64,000 nucleotides of DNA from Planctomycetota bacterium (GTDB lineage: Bacteria > Planctomycetota > SZUA-567 > H5-PLA8), in NCBI GenBank assembly GCA_038227875.1, contig JBBRPR010000018.1, positions 1 to 64,000 of the forward strand, given 5' to 3'. The position numbers were made by a program, and so were the translations under genes. Shown piece after piece: positions 8,560-53,271 of the stretch. The notes beneath the pieces were generated by a model, which was not told where the DNA came from, made no database searches, and was given only the letters and a program-made list of their open reading frames with translations. How positions within the stretch are numbered: position 1 is the stretch's first letter; each line of letters starts with the position of its first letter.

Positions 8560-8667
8560 AGTTTTGAGTTCTTAGTTTTGAGTGTTGAGTTACGTTTGAA
8601 ATACAACACTCACCACCTGCTCGAACTCTCCCTTTTTCAATCCCCTTCTGCAACCCAACTCAAAACT
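8560..8667. repeat. Heptamer-arm inverted repeat (AGTTTTG units / AACTCAAAACT)
   Basis: AGTTTTG AGTTCTT AGTTTTG AGTGTTG AGT on the left; complementary CAACACTCA (8604) and AACTCAAAACT (8657-8667). Confidence 0.7.
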
Positions 8668-8672
8668 ACTGC

Positions 8673-9227
8673 CTACTCTTTCCCCGCCGGCCGCATCCCA
8701 AACGCCGACTGCAGATACTCCAGCGCATGATGCAAGCGGCTGCGCACGGTGCCGCGCGGTTCGCCTAGGCGTTCCGCGATCTCCTTCGGGCTCAGGCCTT
8801 CCAAGTACCGCAACGTCAGAACCGTGCGCTGATCTTCCGGCAGCTCGGACAACGCGCGCATCACGTCGACCCGGTCTTGCAGTGCCACTTCACTGACGAA
8901 CGATTCCCGCGGGTCGGCCACTTCCGGGGCGCTCTCCAGACGTACGTCGTCGGCATGCCTCCGGCGGCTTCGCGCGGCATCGGCTGCCACGTGACCGGCG
9001 ATACCATACACCCAGCGCGCGAAGTGGTCGGGCGTTTGGAGCGACGCCAGACCGCGGTACGCCTTGATGAACACCTCCTGTGTCACGTCCTCGGCCTCGG
9101 CGGCTTGCAGACCCCGCTGCAGGCAAAGCGCGAAAATTGTGCGACGATGCCGGTCGACCAGCTTGCCAAAGGCGTCGCGGTCACCCGTCAGGGTCTCTTG
9201 AACCAGTTCCGCGTCCGACCACGCCAC
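8673..9227 (-). CDS. ECF RNA polymerase sigma factor (SigE/SigW-like)
   Basis: SDAELV...GDRDAFGKLV, AEDVTQEVFIKAY, FARW, LPEDQRTVLTLRYLEGLS..EIA....P.GTVRSRL. Confidence 0.93.
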   Translation of the reverse strand: MAWSDAELVQETLTGDRDAFGKLVDRHRRTIFALCLQRGLQAAEAEDVTQEVFIKAYRGLASLQTPDHFARWVYGIAGHVAADAARSRRRHADDVRLESAPEVADPRESFVSEVALQDRVDVMRALSELPEDQRTVLTLRYLEGLSPKEIAERLGEPRGTVRSRLHHALEYLQSAFGMRPAGKE

Positions 9228-9320
9228 GGCGTTGCTACCTCCGCCTCAAGTACGTCGACACCACTTCACCAAGTGTTGTGCAGATTGTTTTAAGTGCTTC
9301 CATCATCGAGACTTGATTCA

Positions 9321-9361
9321 CACTCAGAGCACTCAGAGCACTCAGGCCACGCGGCCTGAGT
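9321..9361. repeat. Nonamer tandem repeat (CACTCAGAG x2.8) ending in a hairpin
   Basis: CACTCAGAG CACTCAGAG CACTCAG then ACTCAGGCC-ACGC-GGCCTGAGT. Confidence 0.6.
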
Positions 9362-9619
9362 CCTGCATGCAAAATGCATCGTACTACTACGACGCAGCGC
9401 GCACGCCGCGCTTAGAACCTACCTTATATTACAACCAGAGTCGCCCAATGGTGCGAGAGAATCCGAATCCCGCTCATCAATTCGTCAACTCGGGCGGTAA
9501 CGAATTCGTTACCTGGTTAGAAACCACCACTACCCGATTCATTAAGCCTTCGAGAATCGCCTTGAACTTAATGTGTATCGCCGCCATGATTTCCGACACA
9601 TTAAGCGAAAGGTTTCACC

Positions 9620-10690
9620 GTGGCCGACAGCCCCAAGAGTTCTGGTTACCGCATGCCCGCAGAATGGGAGCCGCACGAAGGCACGTGGCTCTCGTGGCCC
9701 CACAATCCGCGCACGTGGACAGGCAACTTCGGACCGATTCCCTCAGTCTTCGTCGAGATCGTCCGGGGCCTCTGCCCGCACGAAAACGTCCACATTTGTG
9801 TCGGTAACGCATTAAGCGAAGCTGCTGTCCGCACTATGCTTACAGAATCCGGACTGGACGCCAAGGACTGTATCCGCTTCTATCACATCCCGACCAACGA
9901 CGCCTGGGCCCGCGACCATGGGCCGATCTTTATCGTCTCTGAGAAACCCAACCAGAGCCGCACGGCCATCGTCGACTGGAAGTTCAATTCCTGGGGCGGC
10001 AAGTACGCCCCTTGGGAGGACGACGACGCCGTCCCCGAACGCATTGCCGAACGCCTGAAGCTTCCGTGTTACAGTCCGCGCGTGGTTCTGGAAGGCGGAT
10101 CGATCGACGTCAACGGCAAGGGCACGGTGCTGACCACCGAATCCGTGCTGCTCAACCCCAACCGCAACCCCACCCTTTCGCGCAAGCAGATCGAAGACCG
10201 CATCGACGATTACCTCGCCGCGCGCCACGTCGTCTGGCTGGGCGATGGCATCGCCGGCGACGACACCGACGGCCACATCGACGACCTGTCGCGCTTCGTC
10301 AACGCCACGACCATCGTCACGGTGGTCGAAGACGATCCGGAAGATATCAACTACCGCGCGTTGCATGAGAATTTCGAACGGCTGCAGACAGCCAAGGACC
10401 AGGACGGCTCAAAATTCGAAATCGTCAAGCTGCCGACGCCAGGAAAAGTCTGCCGCGGCGCCGTACACGGCGGCCGACCGGCCGAAGAACGGCTGCCGGC
10501 CAGCTACGCCAATTTCTACATCGGCAACGGTTCAGTTCTCGTACCCACCTTCGGCCACGCCAACGACGAGAAGGTGCTGGGCATGCTCGGCGAATTCTTC
10601 CCCGGCCGCAAAATGATCGGCATCCGCTGCAACGATCTCGTCGGCGGCTACGGCGCGATTCACTGCGTCACCCAGCAGCAACCGGTTTAA
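9620..10690 (+). CDS. aguA: Agmatine deiminase (peptidyl-arginine deiminase family)
   Basis: RMPAEWEPH, NDAWARDHGP, LEGGSIDVNG, DTDGHID, SYANFY, GAIHCVTQQQP. Confidence 0.92.
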   Translation: MADSPKSSGYRMPAEWEPHEGTWLSWPHNPRTWTGNFGPIPSVFVEIVRGLCPHENVHICVGNALSEAAVRTMLTESGLDAKDCIRFYHIPTNDAWARDHGPIFIVSEKPNQSRTAIVDWKFNSWGGKYAPWEDDDAVPERIAERLKLPCYSPRVVLEGGSIDVNGKGTVLTTESVLLNPNRNPTLSRKQIEDRIDDYLAARHVVWLGDGIAGDDTDGHIDDLSRFVNATTIVTVVEDDPEDINYRALHENFERLQTAKDQDGSKFEIVKLPTPGKVCRGAVHGGRPAEERLPASYANFYIGNGSVLVPTFGHANDEKVLGMLGEFFPGRKMIGIRCNDLVGGYGAIHCVTQQQPV

Positions 10691-10691
10691 A

Positions 10692-10828
10692 AGAGTCATT
10701 GATCATTGGGCATTGGTCATTTTTCATTTACGAGGATCGGCGAACAGGCGATTTGATTTGCCGCAACGCTCTTCGTAAATGAAAAATGACAAATAACCGA
10801 TGCCCAATGACCAATGACCAATGACTCT
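10692..10828. repeat. Heptamer-arm inverted repeat (GTCATTG/CAATGAC), 137 bp, between convergent genes
   Basis: AGA GTCATTG ATCATTG GGCATTG GTCATTT TTCATTT ACGA ... TCGT AAATGAA AAATGAC AAATAAC CGATGCC CAATGAC CAATGAC CAATGAC TCT. Confidence 0.92.
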
Positions 10829-10830
10829 GT

Positions 10831-11643
10831 TCAGAACTTCGGTGCTCGCTCCCCATTCAGCATGAACCACAGGTCCATAAAATTCTGCAGCTTATCGTGC
10901 GCGGTGTTGCGCAGCGGTTCTTTGCTGATGAAACTGATGTCCTTTTCCAGTTGCTCGATCATTTTTACCAAGGTCACATTCTGCTGGCGGTAGGCGTAGG
11001 CCAGGCGCAGCACCTGGACGCGGACTTCCAATTCCAAGGTGGAATCCTTGAGCTGCGTGCGCGCTTTGTTGATGTACTCGTTGAGCTTCCCGCTGGCCGC
11101 GGCGGCTTTGGTATCTTCTTCGGCGTTCATCATCTGCTTGATGAAAACCAGCCCGCCCACGGCGCGGACAGCCGGGAGCTTGTCCGGAAGATCGTTGAGC
11201 TCCGCCTGTTCGGCGGGTGATAATTTTGTCGTGCGCCACTTCTTCATCAGCTCCATGAAACGTTTGTGATCTTCGCGGCGCTTGTTGTCCGTGACGTCTT
11301 TGGACGTCGACGTGCCAGTGCCAGTCCCGGTAGCTGTAGCCGTGGCGGTGGATGTCGCAGTCGCTGTGACTTTCGGAGGTGGCGGGGGTGGCGGCGCGGG
11401 CGGCGGAACGAAACGCAGGCTCTTGAACGCCGACGTTTTCTCCTGCCGAATCTCGCCGGACGGACTTTGGAGCTCGAGCACGCCGTCCTTCATCTCCAGC
11501 AACACGGCGGTGAAAGCCGCGCCCTCATTGGGCGTCAATTCCACGAGTGGACCGACCGGCTTGTCAGCCCTGTCCGGCGGAACGCTCTCCGCACGAAGAC
11601 TCACGGCCAGCAGAGCGAGAATCGATACAGCGATCCATTTCAT
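10831..11643 (-). CDS. Secreted hypothetical protein with Pro/Thr-rich linker
   Basis: Signal peptide MKWIAVSILALLAVSLRA, PPPAPPPPPPP and TATATSTATATATGTGTG linker, helical C-terminus. Confidence 0.75.
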   Translation of the reverse strand: MKWIAVSILALLAVSLRAESVPPDRADKPVGPLVELTPNEGAAFTAVLLEMKDGVLELQSPSGEIRQEKTSAFKSLRFVPPPAPPPPPPPKVTATATSTATATATGTGTGTSTSKDVTDNKRREDHKRFMELMKKWRTTKLSPAEQAELNDLPDKLPAVRAVGGLVFIKQMMNAEEDTKAAAASGKLNEYINKARTQLKDSTLELEVRVQVLRLAYAYRQQNVTLVKMIEQLEKDISFISKEPLRNTAHDKLQNFMDLWFMLNGERAPKF

Positions 11644-11762
11644 AGGCGCATTCTAGCCCACCGGGCAACGCAACAAAGCAATTTCTCCGAGCGGGCCGCC
11701 CGGACTACAAAAATCCATCGCGATCGGTATAGTGTCCCGATCACCACACTCAGGAGCTTCGC

Positions 11763-12992: not shown

Positions 12993-13137
12993 TATCTCAC
13001 GCAAAGCCGCGAAGCCGCAAAGAACAGCAACGGCAACAGATTGAACGGTTCCAGGGCTTGGGAAATGCGTCCCCCAGTTCTCCGGTGCCACACAAATTCG
13101 TGCTTTTCTTTGCGTCTTTGCGGCTTTGCGTGAGATA
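12993..13137. repeat. Nonamer-arm inverted-repeat element (CGCAAAGNC), copy 1, 145 bp
   Basis: TATCTCACGCAAAGCCGCGAAGCCGCAAAGAA ... TTCTTTGCGTCTTTGCGGCTTTGCGTGAGATA, 30/32 complementary. Confidence 0.92.
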
Positions 13138-16929: not shown

Positions 16930-17060
16930 AGTCATTTTCCATTTTCAATTTCTCATTTTCGATTTTCTATTGCCGAAGCTGCCGTGCAAGGTTTTCAGCA
17001 CGTCCCTCGCACTCCGTAAATGGAAAATCAAAAATGACCGATGGAAAATGGAAAATGACT
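16930..17060. repeat. Heptamer-arm inverted repeat (CATTTTC/GAAAATG), 131 bp
   Basis: AGTCATTTTCCATTTTCAATTTCTCATTTTCGATTTTC ... GGAAAATCAAAAATGACCGATGGAAAATGGAAAATGACT; outer 17 bp perfectly complementary. Confidence 0.9.
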
Positions 17061-17071: not shown

Positions 17072-18115
17072 CTACCCGACCTTCACTTCCTTCCCAATCT
17101 GCGCGCTCTTGTACAACCCGTCGAGCACCTGCTGAATGCGGATGCCGTCTTCGCCGTCGGCGATGGGGCGCGTGTTGTCGAGGATCGATTGGACCATGCT
17201 GCCGTACGCGTTGCGGATGCTGCTGTCGGCGAACGCGACTTTGCCGTCGACTTTGTGTTTGCCGATGTTCGAGTGGTATTCGCCGACGAAGTTGTAGCCG
17301 CCGCCCTCGTTGCGGTGAATCAGCGTGCCCTTCGTGCCGATCACGGTGGTGCTCATCCGTTCGGGATCCTTCTGATGATTGCCCCACGAAATCTCGAAGA
17401 GCAGCGATGCGCCGTTTTTAAAGCGGATGAAGCCCGCCGCGAGGTCTTCGCAGTCGTAGAGCTTGCCTTGAGCCTTCGCGCGGGGCACTCCGATCTGGTG
17501 GTGCGCGGTGCCGCTCACGGTTTCCGGCTGCGGATTGCCCATCAGCCACATCGCCATGTCGATACGATGAACGCCGAGATCGATCAGCGGGCCGCCGCCG
17601 GACAATTTCTTCTGCCCGAACCACGATCCGAAACCGGGGAAGCCGTCGCGCCGCGTCCAGCAGGTGAAGCCGTGATAAACCTTGCCGCAGAATCCGTCGT
17701 CGGCCATCTCTTTCAACGCGCGTGCCGGCGGCGTGAAGCGGTAGGAGAGATTGATGCCTAGCTTGCGCTTGGCTTTGTGCGCGACGTCGATCATCTTGCG
17801 CGCCTGCGCGACATTGAGCGCCATCGGCTTTTCGCACAGGACATGCGCGCCGGCTTTCAGCGCGTCAATGCTGACCGGCGCGTGGAGAAAATTCGGAAGC
17901 GCGACGCTGACCAGGTCGGGCTTGGCTTTTTTGAGCATCTCCTTGTAGTCGGTGTAGCAATTCTCGCGGCCCACTTTATCCGCGTACTTTTCCAGGCGCT
18001 TGGCATCGGCATCGGCGATGGCGACCACTTTTGCTTCAGGCGTGGCAAGGTAGCCCTCGAGATGATGCGACCCCATGCCCAGCCCGATCACGGCGCAACG
18101 TACAGGACTGCTCAT
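17072..18115 (-). CDS. Gfo/Idh/MocA family oxidoreductase
   Basis: VIGLGMG, HVLCEKPMA, GGGPLIDLGVH..D; start set to ATG 18115 with GGAG RBS. Confidence 0.92.
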   Translation of the reverse strand: MSSPVRCAVIGLGMGSHHLEGYLATPEAKVVAIADADAKRLEKYADKVGRENCYTDYKEMLKKAKPDLVSVALPNFLHAPVSIDALKAGAHVLCEKPMALNVAQARKMIDVAHKAKRKLGINLSYRFTPPARALKEMADDGFCGKVYHGFTCWTRRDGFPGFGSWFGQKKLSGGGPLIDLGVHRIDMAMWLMGNPQPETVSGTAHHQIGVPRAKAQGKLYDCEDLAAGFIRFKNGASLLFEISWGNHQKDPERMSTTVIGTKGTLIHRNEGGGYNFVGEYHSNIGKHKVDGKVAFADSSIRNAYGSMVQSILDNTRPIADGEDGIRIQQVLDGLYKSAQIGKEVKVG

Positions 18116-18257
18116 TTTGTTGAGTTCTCCGGGAGGTGAATGAAAGATGTGGTAATTGACACGGTAGTGGATGGTCGGGATGGGGTCAAGGTACGCAGGG
18201 ACACAGAGCACCACACTGAAATGTGGGCATGTCAGACGGGTTTTGCATTGAAGCGGT

Positions 18258-18686
18258 TTACACGCCTGTTGACGGCGGATTCTCCACAACCAACTCCGCG
18301 GCCTTCTTTTCCTGCAATTCTTTAGATAGCCGCGAAGCATTGGTCAGCAAGTATGCACCGATCGCCACGCCGATAACGACGCGCCACAATTGAGCGCCCA
18401 TCTGTTCGGCGGTTAGGAATTGAGTCATCAGGCCATAAAGTCCAATCACCAGCAGCACGTTGGCGAAGACTACGGCCTTCACGACTCCAGGCGAGTCTTC
18501 CAGTAGCTTCTGCATTTGCACGCCGACTATAATAAACGCCAGTGCCAAGGCCGCTTGAACGTAGCCTAATGCCGTGAACAACGGCACTCCCGATTTTATC
18601 AAGGGCATAGCACTCACCAGCAGCGACAACACTCCCGCCAGAATAAAATAGGCACGAATCGATCCAACCGTTTCTTTCATCGCCAT
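18258..18686 (-). CDS. Four-TM hypothetical membrane protein
   Basis: Four hydrophobic stretches; GGAGA RBS before ATG 18686; more AT-rich than neighbours. Confidence 0.7.
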   Translation of the reverse strand: MAMKETVGSIRAYFILAGVLSLLVSAMPLIKSGVPLFTALGYVQAALALAFIIVGVQMQKLLEDSPGVVKAVVFANVLLVIGLYGLMTQFLTAEQMGAQLWRVVIGVAIGAYLLTNASRLSKELQEKKAAELVVENPPSTGV

Positions 18687-20720: not shown

Positions 20721-20749
20721 TTGCACCCGACTGAGAAACATACCATACT
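20721..20749 (+). promoter_or_regulatory. Putative sigma70 promoter for the phosphatase gene
   Basis: TTGCAC-17 nt-CATACT. Confidence 0.45.
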
Positions 20750-20801
20750 TCATGATAGTATAAAGTTTGGTGTCCATGTCCCGGAGCAAAGCGCGTCTAT
20801 C

Positions 20802-22749: not shown

Positions 22750-22884
22750 ATGGCATCGGGGATCAGGCATCGGGCATCTGCTTTTCGGAAGGCGTGTCCG
22801 TAAAGCTCAATCGAAGCGAAAGCACGTCGTCGTACGGCGTGCTAGCGAACTGACCGATGCCAGATGCCCGATCCCCGATCCCAT
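22750..22884. repeat. Heptamer-arm inverted repeat (GGCATCG/CGATGCC), 135 bp
   Basis: ATGGCATCGGGGATCAGGCATCGGGCATCTG ... CCGATGCCAGATGCCCGATCCCCGATCCCAT. Confidence 0.88.
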
Positions 22885-24365: not shown

Positions 24366-24407
24366 GAATGTCAAAATACGGAATGTCGAATGTCGAAATG
24401 ACAAAAA
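24366..24407. repeat. Left heptamer arm (GAATGTC units) of cassette-like element
   Basis: GAATGTC AAAATACG GAATGTC GAATGTC GAAATGACAAAAA; reverse complement mirrors 24723-24806. Confidence 0.75.
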
Positions 24408-24458
24408 TCCTCAGACATCTTGGAAGGCTGTCCTCCTTTTAATAGGAGCCACCTGATC

Positions 24459-24641
24459 ATGTTAATTTGGGCGTTCCTTATTTTTTTCATCGGCTTTACT
24501 TGCGCCATTCTGCTGGGCCGAGCCTTCCGCAAGGGCCGCGAAAGAGTGTCGGACGAGGTCATCGATAAAAGGCAGGAATTGGAGCAAATTCTCGCCCGGC
24601 ACGCTGCAGCAAAAGCGAATAAAGACAACGAAGAAAAGTAG
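24459..24641 (+). CDS. Small single-TM hypothetical protein (60 aa)
   Basis: AGGAG RBS, N-terminal hydrophobic helix MLIWAFLIFFIGFTCAILLG, charged tail. Confidence 0.65.
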   Translation: MLIWAFLIFFIGFTCAILLGRAFRKGRERVSDEVIDKRQELEQILARHAAAKANKDNEEK

Positions 24642-24696
24642 TAAGACCACACCCCATTCGATAATAACATCAACGCCGCCATCGAAATTAAAAGAA

Positions 24697-24727
24697 AAAC
24701 GGCGCCTTTCGGCGCCGTTTCCTTTTT
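24697..24727. terminator. Bidirectional intrinsic terminator
   Basis: AAACGGCGCC-TTTC-GGCGCCGTTT with A-run before and T-run after, between convergent genes. Confidence 0.8.
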
Positions 24728-24809
24728 CGTCATTCGTCATTCGTCATTCGTCATTCGTCATTCGTCATTCGTCATTCGACATTCGACATTCGACATTCGA
24801 CATTCGTCA
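24727..24809. repeat. Heptamer tandem array (TCGTCAT)7(TCGACAT)4
   Basis: Counted directly; last partial unit overlaps the matrixin stop codon. Confidence 0.97.
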
Positions 24810-30354: not shown

Positions 30355-30391
30355 AATTTTGAGTTTTGAGTTCTGAATTTTGAATTGAGTT
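30355..30391. repeat. Left heptamer arm (A[AG]TTTTG) of cassette-like element
   Basis: AATTTTG AGTTTTG AGTTCTG AATTTTG AATTGAGTT. Confidence 0.88.
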
Positions 30392-30412
30392 TCGCCGGTC
30401 GACACCTTCTCT

Positions 30413-30886
30413 ATGTCTAATCAAGACTTGTTTCTTGCGGTGCCTATCGGCATTACCCTTGATGACATGACCGACATTTTACAACTCGCGCCACCGCAGG
30501 GTTGGAAGAATAGCATTGGCCGGGTCTCAAATGTCCATTTTTATTTTAATGCACAACCTAAGTTCCAGGAAAAGATCAACTACCCAGGCGAATGGGGACA
30601 GAGACTTAAAATGAGTTGTAGCAAGGGTATTGATCTGGAAGAGGTGAGATTAGCTCTCGCTGTCTATTTATATCGTCAACTGGTCAAAACCTATCCCGGG
30701 AATTACATCTGTTACGATAGTTACCCTACGACATTCTTCTACGCAATGGGCACAGTACTGGTAAAAAATTCGGCACTTACGCGAGGATTCACGTTCCGTC
30801 ATGATTTTGCGCGGGTACTGCCGATGGTTTGCGCGCCACGCGAAGAAATTGATGCAGTCTTGCTATCGTTGAAATCAGGCACTTGA
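30413..30886 (+). CDS. AT-rich orphan hypothetical protein (157 aa)
   Basis: Open frame filling the space between the two arms; many A/T-ending codons unlike neighbours. Confidence 0.65.
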   Translation: MSNQDLFLAVPIGITLDDMTDILQLAPPQGWKNSIGRVSNVHFYFNAQPKFQEKINYPGEWGQRLKMSCSKGIDLEEVRLALAVYLYRQLVKTYPGNYICYDSYPTTFFYAMGTVLVKNSALTRGFTFRHDFARVLPMVCAPREEIDAVLLSLKSGT

Positions 30887-30922
30887 AAGACCAGTCGCTG
30901 ATTTCAAACACTTCCAATCGCC

Positions 30923-30966
30923 AACCCAATTCAAAATTCAAAATTAAGAATTGAGAATTGAGAATT
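30923..30966. repeat. Right heptamer arm (CAAAATT/GAGAATT)
   Basis: AACCCAATT CAAAATT CAAAATT AAGAATT GAGAATT GAGAATT, inverted relative to 30355-30391. Confidence 0.88.
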
Positions 30967-30967
30967 C

Positions 30968-44856: not shown

Positions 44857-46974
44857 ATGGGTCAGCGCACGATTCCGGCCGGTTATGAAGAACGCGTCTA
44901 TGCGGGCGTGTTGGGCAAAATCATCGGCGTGTATCTGGGCCGCCCCTTCGAAGGCTGGGACTACGCGCGCATCATGCGCGATCTGGGTGAGATCAACTAC
45001 TACGTCCACGAAAAGCTGAAAGCCCCCCTGATCGTGACCGACGACGACATCTCCGGCACCTTCACCTTCTTCCGCGCGCTGGAAGACTTCGGCTACTCAA
45101 AGAACCTGACCGCAGCGCAGATCGGCAAAAGCTGGCTCAACTACATCATCGAAAACCGCACGATCCTCTGGTGGGGCGGCATGGGCACGTCGACGGAGCA
45201 CACCGCGTTTCAGCGCCTGAAGCGCGGCATCGAAGCGCCGCGGAGCGGCTCGATCGAACTCAATGGACAGGTCGTCGCCGAACAGATCGGCTCGCAAATC
45301 TTCATCGACGGCTGGGGCATGGTCGCGCCGGGCGACCCGGAACTCGCCGCAGACCTCTCCATGAAAGCCGCCAGCGTCAGCCACGACGGAGAAGCGATCT
45401 ACGGCGCGCAGGTCATCGCGGCGATGGAAGCTCAGGCGTTTGTCGAGCAGGACATGAACAAGCTCTTCGACACGGGCTTGCGCTTCATTCCGAAGGACTG
45501 CACGATCCGCCGCCTGATCGACGACATCCGTGAGTGGCAGGTGAAAGACAAGGATTGGCGGCACACGCGCGAACGAATTCAGGGCGCGTACGGCTACGAC
45601 AAGTTCGGCGGCGGCTGTCACATGGTTCCCAATCACGCCGTGATCATTCTCGCGCTGGCGTACGCGCCGGACGATTTCCAGAAGAGCCTGATGATCGCCA
45701 ACACGGCCGGCTGGGACACCGACTGCAATTCCGGAAACGTCGGCTGCCTGATGGGCATCCGCATGGGTTTGAAGGGCATCGACGCCGGCCCCGATTGGCG
45801 CGGCCCGGTCGCGGACCGTCTCTACCTGCCGACGGCCGACGGCGGACGCTGCATCACCGACGCGGCGCGCGAAACCCTGTCGATCGTGAAGGCCGGACAC
45901 ATTCTGGCCGGCCAGGAATTCAAAGCGCCCAAGAACGGCGCGCGCTTCCACTTCGAACTTCAAGGTTCGGTGCAAGGCTTCGTTCTGGAGCAGAGTCCCG
46001 ATACGCGCGGCGTCGCGACCGTCGAGAACACCGCCGGGCACAGCCGCACCGGTTCGCGCAGCCTGGCGATCCGCTACAAAGGCGTGGCGCTCGGCCGCTC
46101 GGCGCGCGTAGCCACGGCCACCTTCATGCCGAAAGATGCGCTGACCATGGGCGGATATTCGCTCTATTCCAGCCCGACACTGTACAGCGGGCAGGTGGTC
46201 TCGGCGGCGCTGGAGACCGACGCGGCGAACACGGTACCGGTGAGCGTGCGGCCGTACGTGCGCTTCTACGGGCAGGATGACAATCTGGAAATCGCGCGCG
46301 GTCCGGAATCGAAACTGGCCGGCGGCGGCGCTAGGGTGCTCGACTGGAAGATTCCCGAAGTCGACGGCCCGATCGCGGAAGTCGGCATCGAAATCTCTTC
46401 AGACGTCGCGGCGGAAGGTTCCGTCTACGTCGATTACCTGACGTGGAAGGGTGCGCCGTCGGTGACGCTGGGCAAGCCCAAGCAGGCCGGCAGCGCGTGG
46501 ACGCGAGCGTGGGTGAACGCCGCCGATCAGCTCTGGTTTCCGAACGCCGAACATCCGTACCGCCTGATGAGCGACTCCGGTCACAAGCTGATCAGCACCG
46601 GCACCGCCGAGTGGTCGGACTACACCGTCAGCGCCAACGTCCGTCCGCATCTGGCCAGCGCCGCCGGCGTCGCCGCGTGCGTGCAGGGCTTGCAACGCTA
46701 CTACGCGTTGGTGCTCTGCCCGGGCAACAAGGTTAGGCTCGTGAAGCAGCAGTACGGTTTGAGCGTGCTGGCCGAAGCCGACTTCAACTGGAAATTCGGC
46801 GAAACGGTCTCCCTCTCGCTGACCACGAAGGGCACGAAGCTCAGCGCGACGGCCAACGGCAAGACGCTGTTCAAGGTCGATGATGCAGGCTCGCCGTTGA
46901 CCTCCGGCGGCGTGGCGTTGATCATCGACGAAGGACGCCTGGATGCCGGACCGGTGAGCGTGCAGCCGGCGTAA
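44857..46974 (+). CDS. ADP-ribosylglycohydrolase family protein with C-terminal beta-sandwich domains
   Basis: GKIIGV.LG.PFEGW, TDDD, SHDGE, GWDTDCN.GNVG; AAGGAG RBS. Confidence 0.9.
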   Translation: MGQRTIPAGYEERVYAGVLGKIIGVYLGRPFEGWDYARIMRDLGEINYYVHEKLKAPLIVTDDDISGTFTFFRALEDFGYSKNLTAAQIGKSWLNYIIENRTILWWGGMGTSTEHTAFQRLKRGIEAPRSGSIELNGQVVAEQIGSQIFIDGWGMVAPGDPELAADLSMKAASVSHDGEAIYGAQVIAAMEAQAFVEQDMNKLFDTGLRFIPKDCTIRRLIDDIREWQVKDKDWRHTRERIQGAYGYDKFGGGCHMVPNHAVIILALAYAPDDFQKSLMIANTAGWDTDCNSGNVGCLMGIRMGLKGIDAGPDWRGPVADRLYLPTADGGRCITDAARETLSIVKAGHILAGQEFKAPKNGARFHFELQGSVQGFVLEQSPDTRGVATVENTAGHSRTGSRSLAIRYKGVALGRSARVATATFMPKDALTMGGYSLYSSPTLYSGQVVSAALETDAANTVPVSVRPYVRFYGQDDNLEIARGPESKLAGGGARVLDWKIPEVDGPIAEVGIEISSDVAAEGSVYVDYLTWKGAPSVTLGKPKQAGSAWTRAWVNAADQLWFPNAEHPYRLMSDSGHKLISTGTAEWSDYTVSANVRPHLASAAGVAACVQGLQRYYALVLCPGNKVRLVKQQYGLSVLAEADFNWKFGETVSLSLTTKGTKLSATANGKTLFKVDDAGSPLTSGGVALIIDEGRLDAGPVSVQPA

Positions 46975-48101: not shown

Positions 48102-48929
48102 ATGTCCGCCACCGCTGCACCCGCTGCCTCCGAGATCAAATCTGAAACTGACTACCTGGCCGGAAAGACTGTCAGTCCCGCTCAGATCCACGCGTGGGTC
48201 GATCAGTTCAATCGCGATGGTTATCTCTTTCTGCAAAATGTCCTGCCGCCGGATCTCGTCGCGGAACTGCGCGCGGATCTGGATACGGCCTTGAGCAAGC
48301 AGCCGCTGACTGGCGGAATCATTGAACTTCAGGCACGCATGTTCGAAACCAGTGCGGCGAACCGGCGGCTGTTCGATCTCGAACCGATCGTGACGTTTGC
48401 CGAAGCGCTGGTGTCGCAGGATTGCCATGTCGTACACAACAACTCGTTCCAGTCGCATCCCGGCAAGGGCATCGTCGGCTGGCACCAGGACGACGCGCCG
48501 CACTTTCTCGTCACGGAAGGTGAAGCGCCGAAGAACATCAAGCTGCCGTGCCTGCTCTTTACCGCGAATTATTACCTGTCGGACGTGACCACGGTCGCCA
48601 ACGGTCCGACGGAAGTCATTCCCGGATCGCATCTGTTTGGCAAGCATTGCCCGGGCGATTTAAAGGGCACGGAATACGAATCGAAAATCACGCCGTGCCT
48701 GGGTAAAGCGGGCAGCGTGGTGATGTTCAACAACCAGGTCTGGCACCACGGCGCACTGAACACGAGTAACACGATCCGCTACATGACGCAGATCAGCTAT
48801 GCGCGGCGCCTGATCGGACACAAGTACTATCCGTTCATGAATTACCAGATGCCCGAACACGTCTACGCCGGAGCGAACCCGCGCTTAAAGCGGCTCTATG
48901 GTTTCCTGCCTGCGGGCGCGTACGGATAA
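48102..48929 (+). CDS. Phytanoyl-CoA dioxygenase family (Fe/2OG) protein
   Basis: F..DGY, WHQD, NGPT.VIPGSH, G.VV.F....WH. Confidence 0.9.
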   Translation: MSATAAPAASEIKSETDYLAGKTVSPAQIHAWVDQFNRDGYLFLQNVLPPDLVAELRADLDTALSKQPLTGGIIELQARMFETSAANRRLFDLEPIVTFAEALVSQDCHVVHNNSFQSHPGKGIVGWHQDDAPHFLVTEGEAPKNIKLPCLLFTANYYLSDVTTVANGPTEVIPGSHLFGKHCPGDLKGTEYESKITPCLGKAGSVVMFNNQVWHHGALNTSNTIRYMTQISYARRLIGHKYYPFMNYQMPEHVYAGANPRLKRLYGFLPAGAYG

Positions 48930-48931
48930 CC

Positions 48932-49069
48932 GCATTGTGGATTTCGGATTGCGGATTAGATCGGCATTACTCAAAATAAAAACGGCACGCCAATCCATGG
49001 CGTGCCGCTTTATTTGGTCAGGAATCGCGCCAACCTAATCCGCAATCCGCAATCCGAAATCCGCAATGC
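48932..49069. repeat. Heptamer-arm inverted repeat (CGGATTG/CAATCCG), 138 bp, with internal terminator-like hairpin
   Basis: GCATTGTGGATTTCGGATTGCGGATTAG ... CTAATCCGCAATCCGCAATCCGAAATCCGCAATGC; inner CGGCACGCCA-ATCCA-TGGCGTGCCG. Confidence 0.92.
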
Positions 49070-49074
49070 AGTTC

Positions 49075-49678: not shown

Positions 49679-49728
49679 AACCTTTGTGCCTTTGGGCACA
49701 AAGGTTCCACACGTACAACAACCCTGCA
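49679..49728 (-). repeat. REP-like palindrome, copy 2
   Basis: AACCTTTGTGCC-TTTG-GGCACAAAGGTT with the shared flank on the right in inverted orientation. Confidence 0.8.
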
Positions 49729-49857
49729 CCTTGTTCAGTGGAAAAGAGCAAAAGATCAACCGAATCACGCATGGCTTGTTGGACATCCTATATGTTAAAC
49801 TTAGGTCGTGACAATGACGCTTTGACCTAACTTTCCAAGGCCGCGGAGACTAGAGAC

Positions 49858-50682
49858 ATGAAATTAAACGAGCAGCAGATGAAGTTCTTCCACACCTTCG
49901 GTTTCATCGCCTTGCCCGGACTGCTGAACGACCGCATCGGCAAGACCATCGATGCGTTCGAAGAAACGTGGAAATTGAATGGGGGCGGCCACAACGGCAA
50001 GCCGCACGACGGCAAGAATCGCTCCTGCATCGGCATGTACCAGACCAAGGAAATCTGCTCGCTATTGGACGATCCGCGCCTGGTCGGGATTGCGTCGAGC
50101 ATCCTGGGCGACGACTACAACTTTATGGGCGGCGACGGGAATTTTTACGTCGGCGACACCGGCTGGCATTCAGACGGCTGGCACGCCAACGTCATGCATA
50201 TCAAAATCGCGTTCTACCTCGACCCACTCACGAAGGACACCGGCTGTCTTCGCGTCATTCCCGGCAGCCACAAAGTGAAGGACGAATTCGCGCAGGAACT
50301 CCAGAACGATCTCGGCCGCTCAAAAGATTCGTGGGGCATGCTGGGCAAGGAAGTCCCGGCCATTCCGCTGGAGACCAAGCCCGGCGACGTGGTGATCTTC
50401 AATCACAACACCAAGCACGCGGCGTTCGGCGGCGGACACCGGCGGCGCATGTTCACCATGAATCTCTGCCAGCAGTATCCCCCGCACCTCATCCATGAGC
50501 TCAAGTCCTACGTCGAAGGCTGGTCGCGCTTCTGGGCGATGGAACCTTACCAGCCGGCGGTGCTCGCCGACGCCGGTCCGGAACGGATGAAGCATCTCAA
50601 TCAGCTCCTGAACAACTTCGAGCATGTCCGAGTCCTGAGCCGCAAGCGGATGGAGACGGAGCTGGAGCCGGCAAGGGGCTGA
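49858..50682 (+). CDS. Phytanoyl-CoA dioxygenase family (Fe/2OG) protein
   Basis: F.TFGF, WHSD, GCLRVIPGSH, PGDVV.F....KH. Confidence 0.9.
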   Translation: MKLNEQQMKFFHTFGFIALPGLLNDRIGKTIDAFEETWKLNGGGHNGKPHDGKNRSCIGMYQTKEICSLLDDPRLVGIASSILGDDYNFMGGDGNFYVGDTGWHSDGWHANVMHIKIAFYLDPLTKDTGCLRVIPGSHKVKDEFAQELQNDLGRSKDSWGMLGKEVPAIPLETKPGDVVIFNHNTKHAAFGGGHRRRMFTMNLCQQYPPHLIHELKSYVEGWSRFWAMEPYQPAVLADAGPERMKHLNQLLNNFEHVRVLSRKRMETELEPARG

Positions 50683-50694
50683 TCGGAGTCTTAT

Positions 50695-50769
50695 TCTCAC
50701 GCAAAGCCGCAAAGACACTAAGAACGGCGGGATTCGGGATTCCCGCTGTTCTTATGTCTTTACGCGAGA
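50695..50769. repeat. Nonamer-arm element, copy 2 (short, 75 bp)
   Basis: TCTCACGCAAAGCCGCAAAGACACTAAGAACGGCGGGATTCGGGATTCCCGCTGTTCTTATGTCTTTACGCGAGA. Confidence 0.85.
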
Positions 50770-50788
50770 TCAAAACAAGGAACTAGAA

Positions 50789-51427
50789 ATGAACAACATC
50801 ATCGATCTAATGTGCGACGTCGGCGTGCTTCCTGTGTTTCGGACGAATGAGACGCAGAAGTTGATTCCCGCGTCGCTCGCTCTCTTCAAGGCAGGCGTGC
50901 GCGTGATGGAATACACGCTGACGATGCCCAAGGCGCTGGCGTCGATCGAACACGCGGTCGCGGAGCTGCCGCCGGAGATCATCCTCGGCGCGGGGACGGC
51001 GCTGGATGGAGAATCGGCACGGCTGGCGATCCTGGCGGGCGCGAAGTTCGTGGTTTCACCGGGGCTTTCTCCGGAGGTCGTCGAAATGTGCCACCGCTAC
51101 GGTGTGCCGACGGTCGCCGGCGCGAGCACGCCGACGGAGATCATGAACGCGCTGAAGCTGGGCGTGCGCATGATCAAGATTTTCCCGGCCAATTCGCTCT
51201 CGCCGGCTCACATTTTCGATCTGAAGGCGCCGTTTCCCCAAGCGCAGTTCATGATCGCCGGCGGCATCACGCTGGAGAACGTGGGCGCGTACATCAAGGC
51301 CGGCGCGGACGTGGTGACGATCGGCGGCCATTCGGTCGATGCCGCGGCGTTTGCGAGCGGTGACTACGCGGGAATTACGCGGACGACGAAGAATTTTATC
51401 AGCGCGATCGCGCAGGCAAGGAAGTAG
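50789..51427 (+). CDS. eda: KDPG/KHG aldolase family protein
   Basis: LPVFR, EYT, GAGT, GA.FVVSPG, G..TPTE, KIFPA, GGIT..N. Confidence 0.85.
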   Translation: MNNIIDLMCDVGVLPVFRTNETQKLIPASLALFKAGVRVMEYTLTMPKALASIEHAVAELPPEIILGAGTALDGESARLAILAGAKFVVSPGLSPEVVEMCHRYGVPTVAGASTPTEIMNALKLGVRMIKIFPANSLSPAHIFDLKAPFPQAQFMIAGGITLENVGAYIKAGADVVTIGGHSVDAAAFASGDYAGITRTTKNFISAIAQARK

Positions 51428-51465
51428 GCGCGCGTACGTTCCGGCGCGGTTTCAAGCCCCTTCGC

Positions 51466-51500
51466 AAAAAAACTCGCCGCTGAATGCGGCAAGTTTTTTT
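51466..51500. terminator. Bidirectional intrinsic terminator
   Basis: AAAAAAACTCGCCGC-TGAAT-GCGGCAAGTTTTTTT between convergent genes. Confidence 0.8.
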
Positions 51501-51530
51501 CTCAGTCCCCAGTCCTCAGTCCTCAGTCCT
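51501..51530. repeat. Solo heptamer array (CTCAGTC x4)
   Basis: CTCAGTC CCCAGTC CTCAGTC CTCAGTC CT; no inverted partner arm found. Confidence 0.85.
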
Positions 51531-51534
51531 CGCC

Positions 51535-52641
51535 TCACCGCACGGTTCGCTTGCGGTTACGGATGTAATCGACGAGCAGGAACTGGCCAAGCTTGCCCAG
51601 CGCGGTGTAATAAGCGCGGCCGCGGTTGGTTTCGGTGAGTTCCTCGACGAATTCCACCAGCGGCGGGTCGTCGGTGACCATGAAGGTCGTGATTGGAATG
51701 TTCTTACGCCGGCACATCGCACCTTCTTCGAGCGTGCGGTTGACGATGCGCGGGTCGAGCCAGTACCCGGAGTTCTTGTAGCGACGGCCGCCTTCATCGA
51801 GCACCGTGGGTTTGCCGTCCGTAATCAGGAAGATCTGCTTGTTGGCGGAGCGGCCGCGCATCAGCAGCTTGCGCGACAGTTCCAGCGCGGCCTTGGTGTT
51901 GGTGTGCCAGCGGCCCCAGTTCAGAAATGGAACTTTGTCGAGCGGGATTTCGAACGCGTCGTCGCCGAAGGCGATGACGTGGAGTTTGTCTTTCGGGTAG
52001 CGCGTCTTGATCAGTTCAACGAGCCCCAGCGCGACCTGGCGCGCGGGCGTCATGCGGTCTTCGCCGTAGAGGACCATCGAGTTGGAGCAGTCGACGCACA
52101 GGGCCGTCGCGCAGGACGTGTTCATGTCCGTTTCGTGCACGGCGATGTCAGATTCCTTCACGGAGATGCCGTCTTCGCCGTCGGCCAGGGAGCGGCGCAC
52201 GGCGTTGTTGAGCGTGTCGGTCGGTGAGATCGACCAGAGTTCGTCGCCGAATTCGTAGGGTCGCGTTTCGGGCTGGCGTTCGAAGCCGGGACCCGAGGCG
52301 CTGCTGCGGTGGTCCCCCGGCCCGCCCTTCTTTAATCCGCCGAAGATTTCGTTCAGCGCATCGACGCGGAGCGCCTTCGCGCCCTTGGGCGTGAGTGTCA
52401 GCTCGCCGGGCGTTTTCTCGGTGACTTCGCCCTTCTGTTTGAGCATGTCCTTGAACGATTCGAGATTGATCTTCTCGTCCCAGATGTCGTGCTTCTGCGC
52501 GATATAATCGAGCCATTCGAGCGCCTGGTCGACGTCGCCGGCGGACTTGGCCAGCAGCGAACGGAAGAGCTTCATCAGGTCCTGTAGCTTCTGCTCGCGC
52601 GCCTCCGCTTCGTGGTCCCAGGAACCGTATTGAAAGCGCAT
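51535..52641 (-). CDS. VWA-domain protein
   Basis: MIDAS DCSNS, TNT, ITDG; R.YEFGD......TL.NA upstream segment. Confidence 0.88.
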   Translation of the reverse strand: MRFQYGSWDHEAEAREQKLQDLMKLFRSLLAKSAGDVDQALEWLDYIAQKHDIWDEKINLESFKDMLKQKGEVTEKTPGELTLTPKGAKALRVDALNEIFGGLKKGGPGDHRSSASGPGFERQPETRPYEFGDELWSISPTDTLNNAVRRSLADGEDGISVKESDIAVHETDMNTSCATALCVDCSNSMVLYGEDRMTPARQVALGLVELIKTRYPKDKLHVIAFGDDAFEIPLDKVPFLNWGRWHTNTKAALELSRKLLMRGRSANKQIFLITDGKPTVLDEGGRRYKNSGYWLDPRIVNRTLEEGAMCRRKNIPITTFMVTDDPPLVEFVEELTETNRGRAYYTALGKLGQFLLVDYIRNRKRTVR

Positions 52642-52673
52642 CGCGTTCTCCTTTTCAGCAGGCTCATTGCCCG

Positions 52674-53024
52674 CTATTCAGCGGGTTCAATGGTCGCGGA
52701 CATGCTTCCAGTCGAATTGGGAATCAGCGGATCGCGCCCGAACGCGCGGATCTGGTCGCGCTTCAGTTCAGCGCGTTCCAGCGTGGTCGTGTCGACAATG
52801 GTCACGCCAGTCTGATCGACTTCGCAGGCATGCTTGTACGCCTGTTCGTGATTCTTGCCGAACAACTGCATCAGCATGGCGATGACATAATTGTACGAGT
52901 GCGTGTCGTCGTCGTGAAGGATGACGTGATAGAGCGGTGCCTTGCGCGCGATCGGATCGGCCGGCGCGGGGAGCAACTGGGTGCCGGGCTTGCCAGGTTT
53001 GCTTGAGGGTTTTTCTTCAGCCAT
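52674..53024 (-). CDS. clpS: Clp protease adaptor ClpS
   Basis: PLYHVILHDDD.H.Y.YV..ML..LF......A.......D..G........E.AE. Confidence 0.9.
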   Translation of the reverse strand: MAEEKPSSKPGKPGTQLLPAPADPIARKAPLYHVILHDDDTHSYNYVIAMLMQLFGKNHEQAYKHACEVDQTGVTIVDTTTLERAELKRDQIRAFGRDPLIPNSTGSMSATIEPAE

Positions 53025-53132
53025 GGTGTTTCCGCGTTTTCGGAGCGTACGCAAGGAAGCATACCCCGTTATCCGCGTTTGTCGATTCGGCGGGAGAAGT
53101 TTTCATGCCCTTTGAATGAACAACGCGTCTGG

Positions 53133-53271
53133 ATCTCACGCAAAGCCGCAAAGACGCTAAGAACTGCAACTGCGGGAATCGGGAATAGGCACTCGAGATT
53201 CGCCGCGTATCTGCATGGGCGGGCGAATCCCGATTCCCGAATCCCGCCGTTCTTTGCGCTTTGCGTGAGAT
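53133..53271. repeat. Nonamer-arm element, copy 3 (139 bp) with nested heptamer arms
   Basis: ATCTCACGCAAAGCCGCAAAGACGCTAAGAAC..GCGGGAATCGGGAAT ... GAATCCCGATTCCCGAATCCCGCCGTTCTTTGCGCTTTGCGTGAGAT. Confidence 0.9.

Follow-up and report, generated by a model that had tools for sequence, protein, structure and literature searches.

Dispersed fold-back repeats with tandem-heptamer arms in a planctomycete genome, apparently gene-less copies of small mobile cassettes

INTRODUCTION

Heptanucleotide repeats are over-represented in bacteria (Mrazek et al. 2007) and form the STRR of filamentous cyanobacteria, as cited in PMC4692102 and PMC4679880. Inverted heptamer pairs are already published for Xanthomonas: in the part of Rehm et al. 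2015 available to us (PMC4692102), X. campestris (Xcc) and X. axonopodis (Xac) carry GGGAATC repeats in inverted pairs, Nostoc PCC 7120 carries GGGGA(C/T)T, and convergent opposite-strand pairs make up 70 of 186 arrays in Xcc and 75 of 183 in Xac. The 23S rRNA IVS are known in Coxiella, Leptospira, Salmonella and others (Warrier et al. 2016, PMC4990558), and their stems are described in the available portion of that paper as RNase III substrates.

Here we analyze a 64,000-nt stretch of a planctomycete contig (the window), which is a sample of a genome-wide superfamily of dispersed fold-back repeats.

RESULTS

Tandem Repeats Finder detected 15 period-7 arrays in the window, compared to a mean of 1.75 in 20 dinucleotide shuffles. 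Inverted heptamer arms can be read at 8560, 10692, 16930, 22750, 24366/24726, 30355/30928, 48932/49037 and 53170/53224, and RNA folding gave long hairpins for six of seven window elements (−57 to −77 kcal/mol, z −7.6 to −10.9). The fold-back arms that a sequence-only reading had placed in this window are thus present. The 8560 element folds weakly (z −2.5), because its right arm is only ~1.5 units long. The features are listed below, with gene contexts from our own crude gene caller.

8560..8668, no strand assigned: GAGTTTT-family fold-back, with an ECF sigma-factor gene stop (8673) on one side and the start of the next minus-strand gene on the other; left arm of ~5 units, right arm eroded.
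10692..10828, no strand assigned: GTCATTG-family fold-back of 137 bp between convergent genes (−70.6 kcal/mol, z −10.9); family-conserved inner stem CATTTACG..GAGCG / CGCTC..CGTAAATG, variable centre of ~28 nt, 8 or more further copies, 72-80% identical.
12995..13135, no strand assigned: 8-mer-family fold-back between convergent genes (−75.4 kcal/mol, z −9.1), a sister class of the heptamer elements, laid out as TCTCAC(GCAAAGNC)n AAGAACAGCAACGGC ... (GNCTTTGC)n GTGAGA.
16930..17060, no strand assigned: CCATTTT-family fold-back of 131 bp (z −7.7), immediately past the stop of a Gfo/Idh/MocA oxidoreductase gene (17072-18340, minus strand).
22750..22884, no strand assigned: GGCATCG/GGGATCG-family fold-back of 135 bp (z −7.6), 46 nt past a SpoIIE-phosphatase gene stop; family copies are 77-85% identical.
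24366..24809, no strand assigned: GAATGTC/GACATTC-family arms (left ~45 nt; right 84 nt, or 12 units) enclosing a membrane-like ORF of 60 aa (24459-24641, no Pfam match) and a bidirectional terminator-like hairpin (about 24690-24722); the array word is highly abundant among metagenome contigs.
30355..30967, no strand assigned: AATTTTG/GAGTTTT-type arms around a 157-aa orphan ORF (30413-30886) of low GC (0.46), with no Pfam family and no homologues in 62 genomes of the class or a 5.8-billion protein set.
48928..49073, no strand assigned: GCGGATT-family fold-back between convergent genes (−74.6 kcal/mol, z −9.9); the left end (TAACCGC) runs into the TAA stop of a PhyH gene, and the core contains a bidirectional terminator-like hairpin.
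51501..51531, minus strand: solo CTCAGTC array, read on the minus strand as the G-rich 5'-arm form GACTGAG, between a bidirectional terminator-like hairpin (51468-51500) and the stop of gene 51535-52641.
53138..53268, no strand assigned: composite fold-back flanked by divergent ClpS and RlaP genes (−76 kcal/mol, z −7.6), with 8-mer outer arms (CGCAAAGN), a AAGAACTGCAACTGC junction and CGGGAAT heptamer inner arms.

A census of the 9.3-Mb genome returned ~210 paired elements and ~435 intergenic solo arrays. The elements sort into ~12 sequence families, each with its own heptamer, a family-specific inner stem and a free loop, and copies of a family have non-repeat termini as well as inner stems in common. 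One unit of this genome, GGTCATT, is presumably a rotation of the STRR2 unit TTGGTCA. The 7-mer had been thought to be specific to each locus, which holds within the window only; genome-wide, ~12 units recur 44-93 times each. The earlier view that sequence is free is wrong, because it is conserved within each family. Nor does the proposed consensus NN[CG]AN[CT]N say much: by our own arithmetic roughly one in three random heptamers would match in at least one rotation, and the unit list places two major families, GGGGTCA and GGCTCTT, outside it. A conserved total length, suggested by window elements of 131, 135, 137 and 138 bp, finds no support either: the family medians span 73-206 bp, and just 37 of the 207 elements measure 125-145 bp. 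Nor is 7 the only period: an 8-mer family (CGCAAAGN) makes up the fold-back at 12995-13135 and the outer arms at 53138-53268; this family has 14 pairs genome-wide, none with reverse polarity. Variant units mirrored between the two arms of an element had been read as a local feature. However, left arms pair no better with their own partners than with the right arms of other same-family copies (27.1 versus 27.4, 22.4 versus 22.3, 26.2 versus 26.3), and the GATTTCG variant is present in most copies of its family, i.e. it belongs to the family consensus. Because units recur, non-repeat ends and inner stems are common to copies, and own-arm pairing is unexceptional, we regard the elements as families rather than products of local growth.

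Polarity is conserved, as had been claimed. Each family keeps to a single arrangement (13/13, 16/16, 25/25, 23/23, 21/21, with others alike), and among 209 short fold-backs 197 have a G+T-rich 5' arm, on whichever strand the element is read. Outer junctions of the form AACNG...CNGTT are common to the families. Of 199 elements, 90 have AACNG at the left end and 81 have CNGTT at the right end; the corresponding figures are 14 and 20 in displaced controls and 16 and 15 in the opposite orientation. Exactly this polarity, with the G+T-rich strand running 5'-3' inward on both strands, would be predicted if the elements were break-healing scars, formed by telomerase-like templated G+T-rich extension of both 3' break ends followed by joining, sometimes with capture of filler DNA. 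Variable cores (169 cores form 150 clusters) and arm differences of whole units would be predicted as well. We nevertheless consider such scars extremely improbable: both the arrays and the outer junction contain conserved family-specific non-repeat sequence, entire cassettes whose proteins and arms are related are found in differing contexts, and a candidate enzyme was neither sought nor seen.

The elements lie close behind genes. Arrays begin a median of 12.5 nt past the upstream stop (≤20 nt in 89/124), compared to a median of 49.5 nt to the next start codon (≤20 nt in 27/124), and of 99 ends that bear the motif, 28 have a junction overlapping the stop codon. The stop-adjacent solo arrays obey the orientation rule in 103 of 126 cases, with the G+T-rich form in the sense strand. 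This bias could mean that each array is a standalone platform in the 3' untranslated region, where ssRNA (or DNA) is bound by one protein per 7 nt, inverted pairs being one array from each of two convergent genes. CspB binds heptamer repeats with one protein per unit, according to the portion of PMC4679880 at hand. Terminator-like hairpins lie between or beside the arms at 24366-24809, 48928-49073 and 51501, and therefore each transcript may carry only one arm. On the other hand, 125 of 200 pairs sit between tandem genes, placing both arms on one transcript, and a terminator-like hairpin is present in just 16 of the 207 cores; geometry would produce the same orientation bias if solo arrays were half-eroded pairs. 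Separate binding platforms thus seem quite improbable.

To what extent could the arms be terminator or mRNA-stabilizing stems, expanded in place by slippage and inherited vertically? Arm differences come in whole units, the overall length distribution is broad, and according to the available part of PMC4679880, Mrazek et al. 2007 put forward a slippage bias for heptanucleotides. Gene 3' ends are occupied and divergent intergenic regions are under-represented (19 of 199 elements versus 1071 of 6154 intergenic regions). Yet a T-run follows the 3' arm in only 7 of 207 elements, which, together with the scarcity of terminator-like core hairpins, bears out the earlier judgment that these are not ordinary terminators. 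Stems expanded in place would also not be expected to conserve non-repeat termini and inner stems among dispersed copies, or to lack any excess of own-arm pairing.

Relatives provide further evidence against growth in place. The relatives were sampled as 64-400 kb from convenience-chosen contigs. The site orthologous to the 16930 element is empty in six of seven relatives and that of the 22750 element in eight of nine. Arrays at orthologous gene ends were seen in 1/7, 1/9 and 2/7 relatives, every time of another family, and two congeneric genomes wholly lack a period-7 excess. Since the elements are mostly missing from the orthologous sites of sister genera, we infer that they were copied in and not grown in place. 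In situ expansion is accordingly improbable. Tested fold-backs of up to 700 bp yielded no paralogous empty site, and no target duplication was seen, although without a formal scan. No insertion was caught in the act: the sole informative contig from another study (run X4, covering 8408-8681) shows the 8560 element fixed in place, with 6 substitutions and 0 gaps.

The remark that no enzyme is visible in the window agrees with Pfam annotation of 22 flanking genes, which gave housekeeping functions only. Of the partners proposed for a genome-wide check, HUH/RAYT proteins show no link: of the Y1_Tnp loci inspected (four full-length and four partial hits), not one has heptamer-pair flanks, and the full-length loci have classical small REP hairpins. 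The single DUF559 fragment is likewise without arms. The 23S genes of the relatives G006 and G008 have the normal length, and what interrupts that of G014 is a group I intron.

The suggested association with four-helix-bundle genes, by contrast, was confirmed. PF05635 (four-helix-bundle, Avd-like, "23S rRNA IVS protein") genes lie between such arms in one of two cases in this genome and at 24 of 30 loci across the bacterial family, in the form of tandem-word arms. At least five inverted 9-mers between flanks were found at 24/30 PF05635 loci versus 47/600 random segments. PDDEXK_3/GxxExxY genes are bracketed by arms of a sister class, whose words are 8-10 nt long. The suggested enrichment of TIGR04256 also emerged, with the single such gene of this genome flanked by 8-mer arms and arms present at 27 of 28 TIGR04256 genes. 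Of 24 PF05635 cassettes, 21 have a best arm period of 7, versus 0 of 27 TIGR04256 cassettes, all 27 of which have one of 8-10; this comparison is not corrected for shared descent. That cargo type predicts arm period fits recognition of the periodic arms by the cassette protein; a fixed period could also be simple inheritance of unit length. To our knowledge, neither cassette protein has a function in mobility, and we know of no transposase that is involved. Among solved structures, XCC0516 (2GSC) is the nearest homologue of the local PF05635 protein, with an E value of 2.5e-22.

Several observations connect gene-less elements to cassettes. A gene-less GGGGTCA element (C38:64612) and a PF05635 cassette (C9:108834-109377) have, by eye, a leader of ~100 nt in common, and one PF05635 cassette of G008 has an arm word that is found again at ~60 other places. 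Across 13 genomes, PF05635 hits track period-7 density (Spearman rho 0.71, without correction for shared descent), and the two genomes with zero hits show no heptamer excess.

It could instead be that the small genes are passengers, and that an enzyme of the host or of an IS, unrelated to them, copies the REP/MITE-like fold-backs. Short genes of these two families would then be trapped in loops, or arms kept as an expression aid for a promoter-less gene, and the match of cargo and period would reflect common descent of each cassette lineage, since the unit length of a tandem array is inherited. Orphan ORFs of unrelated kinds can occupy the core: six small ORFs tested have no Pfam family. This genome has only two PF05635 and one TIGR04256 hits against ~12 families, gene-bearing members being confined to the GGGGTCA and 8-mer families, and the heptamer excess is absent from four genomes with 3-4 PF05635 hits. 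However, the frequency of arms at PF05635 and TIGR04256 genes is far above that of random segments, the period stays tied to cargo though unit sequences have diverged almost completely, and Y1_Tnp/RAYT, the sole transposase family tested, shows no association. We regard a passenger role as rather unlikely.

DISCUSSION

Our data suggest that these hairpins are gene-less copies of small, apparently mobile cassettes, a little-studied kind of repeat and not a proven new machine. We lean towards an account in which the short elements would be to gene-bearing cassettes what MITEs are to insertion sequences. They would arrive by copying into place, without growth in situ, the cassette protein probably recognizing the periodic arms in the process, and replication slippage could later add or remove whole arm units. 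Upon read-through from the upstream gene, the arms would form a long hairpin that RNase III may cut, like the stems of 23S IVS, both ending the host mRNA and freeing a promoter-less cassette mRNA. At the RNA level there is little to go on: sense strands fold only slightly better than antisense strands (66 versus 47, P 0.04), and no covariation was found in the inner stem. Taken as a whole, this chain of copied-in, protein-recognized and RNase III-cut hairpins is in our estimate somewhat better than an even bet; its copying and RNA-processing steps we infer.

How do the elements compare with known systems? REP/BIME/REPIN sequences, which are RAYT-mobilized (Di Nocera et al. 2013, PMC3733652), are, as far as the available part of that review describes, also high-copy extragenic palindromes at gene ends, often inverted dimers with a variable spacer. 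They differ in their GTAG or CGTC tag, absent here, and in being palindromes of 20-40 bp, compared to arms of 20-80 nt of tandem words; RAYT genes of this genome are flanked by small hairpins of their own, not heptamers. MITEs (Correia/NEMIS, ERIC, RUP, Nezha), in the same part of that review, are likewise non-coding, 60-300 bp long and bounded by terminal inverted repeats, insert next to genes, are co-transcribed and form strong hairpins. Here, in contrast, neither a target duplication (short of a formal scan) nor a parent IS with a transposase was seen, and the gene-bearing relatives encode a four-helix-bundle or PD-(D/E)XK protein of no assigned function.

Like our elements, the 23S IVS, as described in the source at hand, have inverted-repeat borders that form a long stem, may contain a PF05635-type ORF (S23p), and are sporadically distributed with suspected horizontal transfer. 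Their stem is cut by RNase III, whereas such cutting is conjectural for our elements, which lie past protein-gene stops and not in 23S helices, have arms of tandem words, and number in the hundreds, most of them gene-less. STRR resemble our elements in having several heptamer units per genome, an intergenic location and no assigned function; the descriptions available to us present them as direct tandem arrays, so that fold-back, junction motifs and cargo genes fall outside that description.

The Xanthomonas repeats come closest, being intergenic tandem heptamers of mostly ~4 units. They have one unit type, versus ~12 here, and are regarded as simple repeats that form G-quadruplexes; the available part of Rehm et al. 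2015 (PMC4692102) contains no description of shared termini, stop-codon placement or a four-helix-bundle link. Their word GGGAATC/GGGATTC is nonetheless that of one family here (53170/53224), and table S2 of that paper supplies an independent case of array and cargo: a GGGAATC array lies 6 nt from XCC0517 and overlaps the start of XCC0516, a PF05635 protein.

Fold-back elements in the window

Fold-back arms of tandem 7-nt words could be read at every place where the sequence-only reading had put them. Tandem Repeats Finder returned 15 period-7 arrays in the window, compared to a mean of 1.75 in 20 dinucleotide-preserving shuffles, and every copy in the window is located between protein genes. 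When folded as RNA, six of the seven elements form long hairpins (–57 to –77 kcal/mol, z –7.6 to –10.9); folding at 8560 is weak (z –2.5), owing to erosion of the right arm there to ∼1.5 units. No Rfam family was found on any window element at gathering score, the sole match being a tRNA at 1826–1899. Words of 8 nt also make up arms:

Window 12995–13135: fold-back of 8-nt words, found in addition to the loci first noticed
Window 53138–53268: composite element, its outer arms being the 8-mers of the 12995–13135 fold-back

Several other features of the window were recorded. A 2-unit CGGGATT array (50728–50742) occupies the gap between genes 49858–50682 and 50789–51427. The 3-unit GCCGACG array at 45828–45848 lies within a coding region and is probably unrelated to the heptamer elements. 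Both a 60-aa ORF with a hydrophobic start (24459–24641) and a bidirectional terminator-like hairpin (∼24690–24722) sit between the same very unequal arms (∼6 versus 12 units), and the right-arm word of this element reaches a depth of 245–1210 in sediment metagenome contigs, compared to 1–40 elsewhere on the stretch. At 30413–30886, a fold-back encloses a low-GC (0.46) 157-aa ORF for which neither a Pfam family nor a homologue was found in the collections searched; it may represent an orphan gene acquired recently, or may not be a gene.

Recurring families of heptamer arrays

The host genome carries families of these elements that have conserved non-repeat junctions, fixed polarity and a characteristic placement at stop codons. 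Its assembly (9.34 Mb, 176 contigs, 59.6% G+C) contains 1313 period-7 arrays; period-6 arrays number 463 and period-8 arrays 434. The corresponding intergenic counts are 1000, 56 and 186, and a stricter detector returned 294, 56 and 16. Such arrays are present in ∼13% (639/5072) of the intergenic regions. The heptamer had been described as locus-specific, but about a dozen units recur 44–93 times each genome-wide. Copies of a family also have non-repeat sequence in common, e.g. ACGGAGTCATTGG ... TTTTCATTTACGGAGCG, ∼28 variable nt, then CGCTCCGTAAATG ... CCAATGACTCCGT. Where an array has a partner within 3 kb, the partner is inverted for 249 arrays versus direct for 72.

The common total length of ∼131–138 bp that had been proposed does not hold, as family medians range from 73 to 206 bp and only 37/207 fall between 125 and 145 bp. 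Loops are mostly unrelated, with 150 BLAST clusters from 169 cores. Variant units had been seen as mirrored between the two arms of a locus. However, a left arm pairs no better with its own right arm than with those of other copies (own/other 27.1/27.4, 22.4/22.3, 21.4/21.4 and 26.2/26.3). The ‘mirrored variants’ thus derive from the family consensus rather than being local. The recurring units, common non-repeat sequence, family lengths and arm-pairing result fit copying from master sequences, not growth in place. We found no nested insertion of one heptamer family within another and no covariation in the GTCATTG inner stem, where paired columns are nearly invariant.

A sister family has arms in which 8-nt words (CGCAAAGN) precede AACNGC hexamers, with 14 pairs genome-wide, all of a single polarity. 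Period-10 intergenic families recur genome-wide as well (AAAATGTTAC, 28 arrays; AAGCCGGCTG, 14 arrays). A separate observation concerns the SpoIIE-phosphatase gene of the window (20721–22703), whose 3′ part has a 79%-identical paralogue on another contig of the host (C3:206045–207443). Downstream of the C3 paralogue lies a GGGGTCA element, versus a GGCATCG element at the window copy.

Polarity, junctions and placement

Each family adopts one arrangement (13/13, 16/16, 25/25, 23/23, 21/21 and so on), in agreement with the polarity first noticed. The 5′ arm is the G+T-rich one in 197/209 short fold-backs, copies that are not independent of each other; counted per family, the rule holds in 11/12, the twelfth splitting 5 to 4. 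The left array is bordered on its outer side by the motif AACNG in 90/199 elements, and the right array by CNGTT in 81/199. Control counts are 14 and 20 for displaced positions, and 16 and 15 for the opposite orientation. In the 8-mer family, the AACNG/CNGTT motif stands between the 8-mers and the inner part.

According to our own crude gene calls, arrays start a median of 12.5 nt from the upstream stop codon (≤20 nt in 89/124) and lie a median of 49.5 nt from the next start (≤20 nt in 27/124). Among 99 motif-bearing ends, 28 have the junction motif overlapping the stop codon (TAACNG or TGAACNG). By the same gene calls, elements between divergent genes are underrepresented (19/199 elements versus 1071/6154 intergenic regions). 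The view that these are not ordinary terminators is sustained: the U-run that directly follows the G+C-rich hairpin of an intrinsic terminator is mostly lacking, with at least six T in the 10 nt past the 3′ arm in only 7/207 elements and a terminator-like hairpin in 16/207 cores. Sense folding is only slightly better than antisense (66 versus 47, P = 0.04).

A Rhodothermales MAG record (L021) contains a long composite array at 201–520, in which GATTGGG/GATTCGG blocks alternate with GTCATTG blocks. Every GTCATTG block there is preceded by a GAGACGGAGTCATTGG junction, which is also present in the host genome.

Small genes enclosed by the arms

Like arms surround members of two small gene families, and the period of the arms is linked to the cargo. 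The suggestion that four-helix-bundle genes lie between similar arms proved correct for one of the two PF05635 loci of the host and for 24/30 across the bacterial family. The host gene in question, C9:109003–109308, lies between GGGGTCA arms (108834–109377), directly behind a stop codon. A gene-less GGGGTCA element (C38:64612–64822) has, judged by eye rather than by alignment, a leader of ∼100 nt in common with this cassette. PF05635 matches are found in 15/17 genomes of the family, the host included, and 30 loci were fetched, two of them from the host. At least five inverted 9-mers between the 330-nt flanks were present at 24/30 PF05635 loci, compared to 47/600 random segments, and alignment revealed tandem-word arms at 24/30 loci, each with its own unit. 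The closest PF05635 proteins (pairs of 69%, 67% and 52% identity) have related arm words and, apart from one syntenic pair, unrelated flanks; by sequence comparison, PF05635 cassettes appear to travel as units. In one relative (G008), the arm word of one PF05635 cassette occurs at ∼60 other places.

An anticipated link to TIGR04256 was likewise seen, the sole TIGR04256/PDDEXK_3 gene of the host lying within one copy of the 8-mer sister family (C2:183787–184295), between 8-mer arms, the left of which begins 10 nt past a stop codon. From 30 fetched TIGR04256 loci, 28 were analysed after two sub-threshold fragments were dropped; 22/28 passed the 9-mer test and 27/28 have tandem-word arms. The best arm period is 7 in 21/24 PF05635 cassettes and 8, 9 or 10 in 27/27 TIGR04256 cassettes (Fisher P = 2 × 10⁻¹¹, not corrected for descent). 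DUF559, which had also been suggested as cargo, is represented in the host by one fragment without arms.

Across 13 genomes, the number of PF05635 matches correlates with period-7 density (Spearman 0.71, P = 0.007, uncorrected), where density was sampled from 64–400 kb of contigs chosen for convenience, and from the whole genome for the host. The two genomes with 0 PF05635 matches have no period-7 excess (ratios 0.98 and 1.21), and their congener with 11 matches reaches 2.9. No period-7 excess is seen in four genomes with 3–4 matches, and the host, with 2 matches, has a ratio of 2.9.

Orthologous sites and proposed copying

In sister genera, most orthologous sites lack an element; the nearest genomes compared are from the same family but other genera, with coding DNA ≤81% identical. 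At three orthologous genes, the region behind the stop codon contains an array in 1/7, 1/9 and 2/7 relatives, always of a family other than the one in the host and once of opposite polarity, and the remaining sites are short and empty. A single contig from another study spans 8408–8681 with the 8560 element in place. No strain-level polymorphism emerged from contigs of other samples, and short contigs from four sequencing runs gave neither a change in unit number nor an empty site at window elements. Among the sequencing runs listed as containing this DNA, none is of RNA. Contig joints at 13022/13108 resemble other copies of the 8-mer family with different loops. No insertion event was caught in these comparisons. 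Within the host genome, no paralogous empty site was found for fold-backs of up to 700 bp, a flank paralogue existing for 34 elements and both flanks together for 0. In the printed element flanks, the end motifs are inverted, not direct, and no target duplication was seen. A scan of exact 20-mers against 185,579 species gave 5 matches, spread over 5 phyla and including at least 2 similar fold-backs, and this does not separate horizontal spread from chance, because 5 matches are too few amid many GTCATTG arrays.

Probable hairpin cassettes and their proposed copying

We consider the window elements most likely to be gene-less members of small hairpin cassettes. Copying would take place at the DNA level and use the cassette protein, with whole units slipping later, after copying. 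By analogy with 23S intervening sequences (IVS), RNase III may cut the read-through hairpin. The main rival explanation is that the genes are passengers and that another enzyme copies the fold-backs. Among 41 longer pairs, no transposase was evident from translations, and the six enclosed ORFs that were scanned against Pfam matched no family. An HUH/RAYT association had been envisaged, but none of the four full-length and four partial PF01797 (Y1_Tnp) matches of the host is flanked by a heptamer pair. On this basis RAYT/HUH was rejected as the mobiliser, and RAYT, the one transposase family tested, is not the copying enzyme. The full-length Y1_Tnp (RAYT/IS200-like) genes have small classical palindromes beside them, e.g. 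TTGTCCTGTAAGGACAA:

C72:36122–36574: full-length Y1_Tnp gene, flanked by small palindromes
C9:158288–158740: full-length Y1_Tnp gene, flanked by small palindromes
C3:47816–48160: full-length Y1_Tnp gene, flanked by small palindromes
C79:186–632: full-length Y1_Tnp gene, flanked by small palindromes

Because some of these palindromes recur in the genome, a separate REP-like system seems to exist in the host.

A broader version of the hairpin-cassette interpretation is, in our estimation, doubtful. It would make the PF05635 and PDDEXK_3/GxxExxY proteins trans-acting factors of widespread, undescribed hairpin-cassette mobile elements, each family reading its arms by period (7 versus 8–10 nt) and polarity, largely regardless of the word. 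One protein could thus copy many gene-less families behind stop codons or into hairpin loops, and 23S IVS, cyanobacterial STRR and Xanthomonas GGGAATC pairs would be facets of one system. To our knowledge, heptamer repeats (STRR, Xanthomonas GGGAATC arrays) and 23S IVS ORFs have gone unexplained for ∼30 years, and we know of no assigned role for the large PF05635 and PDDEXK_3 families outside diversity-generating retroelements. The present data tie these two puzzles together, in that the repeats are arms of small cassettes and the arm period is predicted by the cargo protein. The arrays also affect assembly, gene-end annotation and 3′-end RNA biology in Planctomycetota-like genomes.

Comparison with known systems

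Like MITEs, the elements have terminal inverted repeats without coding capacity. MITEs derive from a parent with the same ends and a transposase, whereas the gene-bearing relatives here encode PF05635 or PDDEXK_3 proteins, not a known transposase. REPs and REPINs are 20–40-bp palindromes with a GTAG or CGTC tag, whereas the ends here read AACNG...CNGTT. In the available text of the respective sources, PF05635 is regarded as Avd-like (PMC10053308) and the function of PDDEXK_3 is listed as unknown (PMC3424549). Our literature search returned no paper that places PF05635 or PDDEXK_3 genes between tandem-word arms or reports a cargo-specific period, although subscription journals may contain one.

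As in 23S IVS, terminal inverted repeats surround a PF05635 ORF at C9:108834–109377 and at 24/30 loci of the family; window copies are gene-less. RNase III cuts the stems of IVS, whose ORF is described as having an unknown role (PMC4990558). IVS are inserted in 23S helix 9, 25 or 45, unlike the elements here. No 23S gene was found in the host assembly. Among relatives, G006 and G008 have 23S genes of the usual length, and the 23S gene of G014 (locus L191, G014:C1) has a ∼690-nt insertion (∼2457–3149 of the locus) at the conserved site between ...CCTAAGGT and AGCGAAG..., with a LAGLIDADG-type ORF. This insertion, a group I intron, has no relation to the heptamer elements, and IVS were rejected for these relatives.

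Inverted heptamer pairs have already been published for Xanthomonas (Rehm 2015, PMC4692102). Among solved structures, XCC0516 of Xanthomonas campestris (2GSC) is the nearest homologue of the local PF05635 protein (E 2.5e-22). The strain that encodes XCC0516 is reported to have 186 GGGAATC arrays, of which 70 form convergent pairs (Rehm et al. 2015, PMC4692102). Row 15 of supplementary table S2 of that paper places an array 6 nt from XCC0517 (bccP), overlapping the XCC0516 start, an overlap that passes without comment in the available portion of the article (PMC4692102). In the host genome, the CGGGAAT/CGGGATT family (65 + 23 arrays) has a unit of the GGGNATC type, which in the Xanthomonas pairs goes with G-quadruplex potential; the units of other families are not of this type. 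As in the Xanthomonas-type pairs (Rehm 2015), the elements here are intergenic tandem arrays of at least two 7-nt units, and their convergent arrays lie close together on opposite strands.
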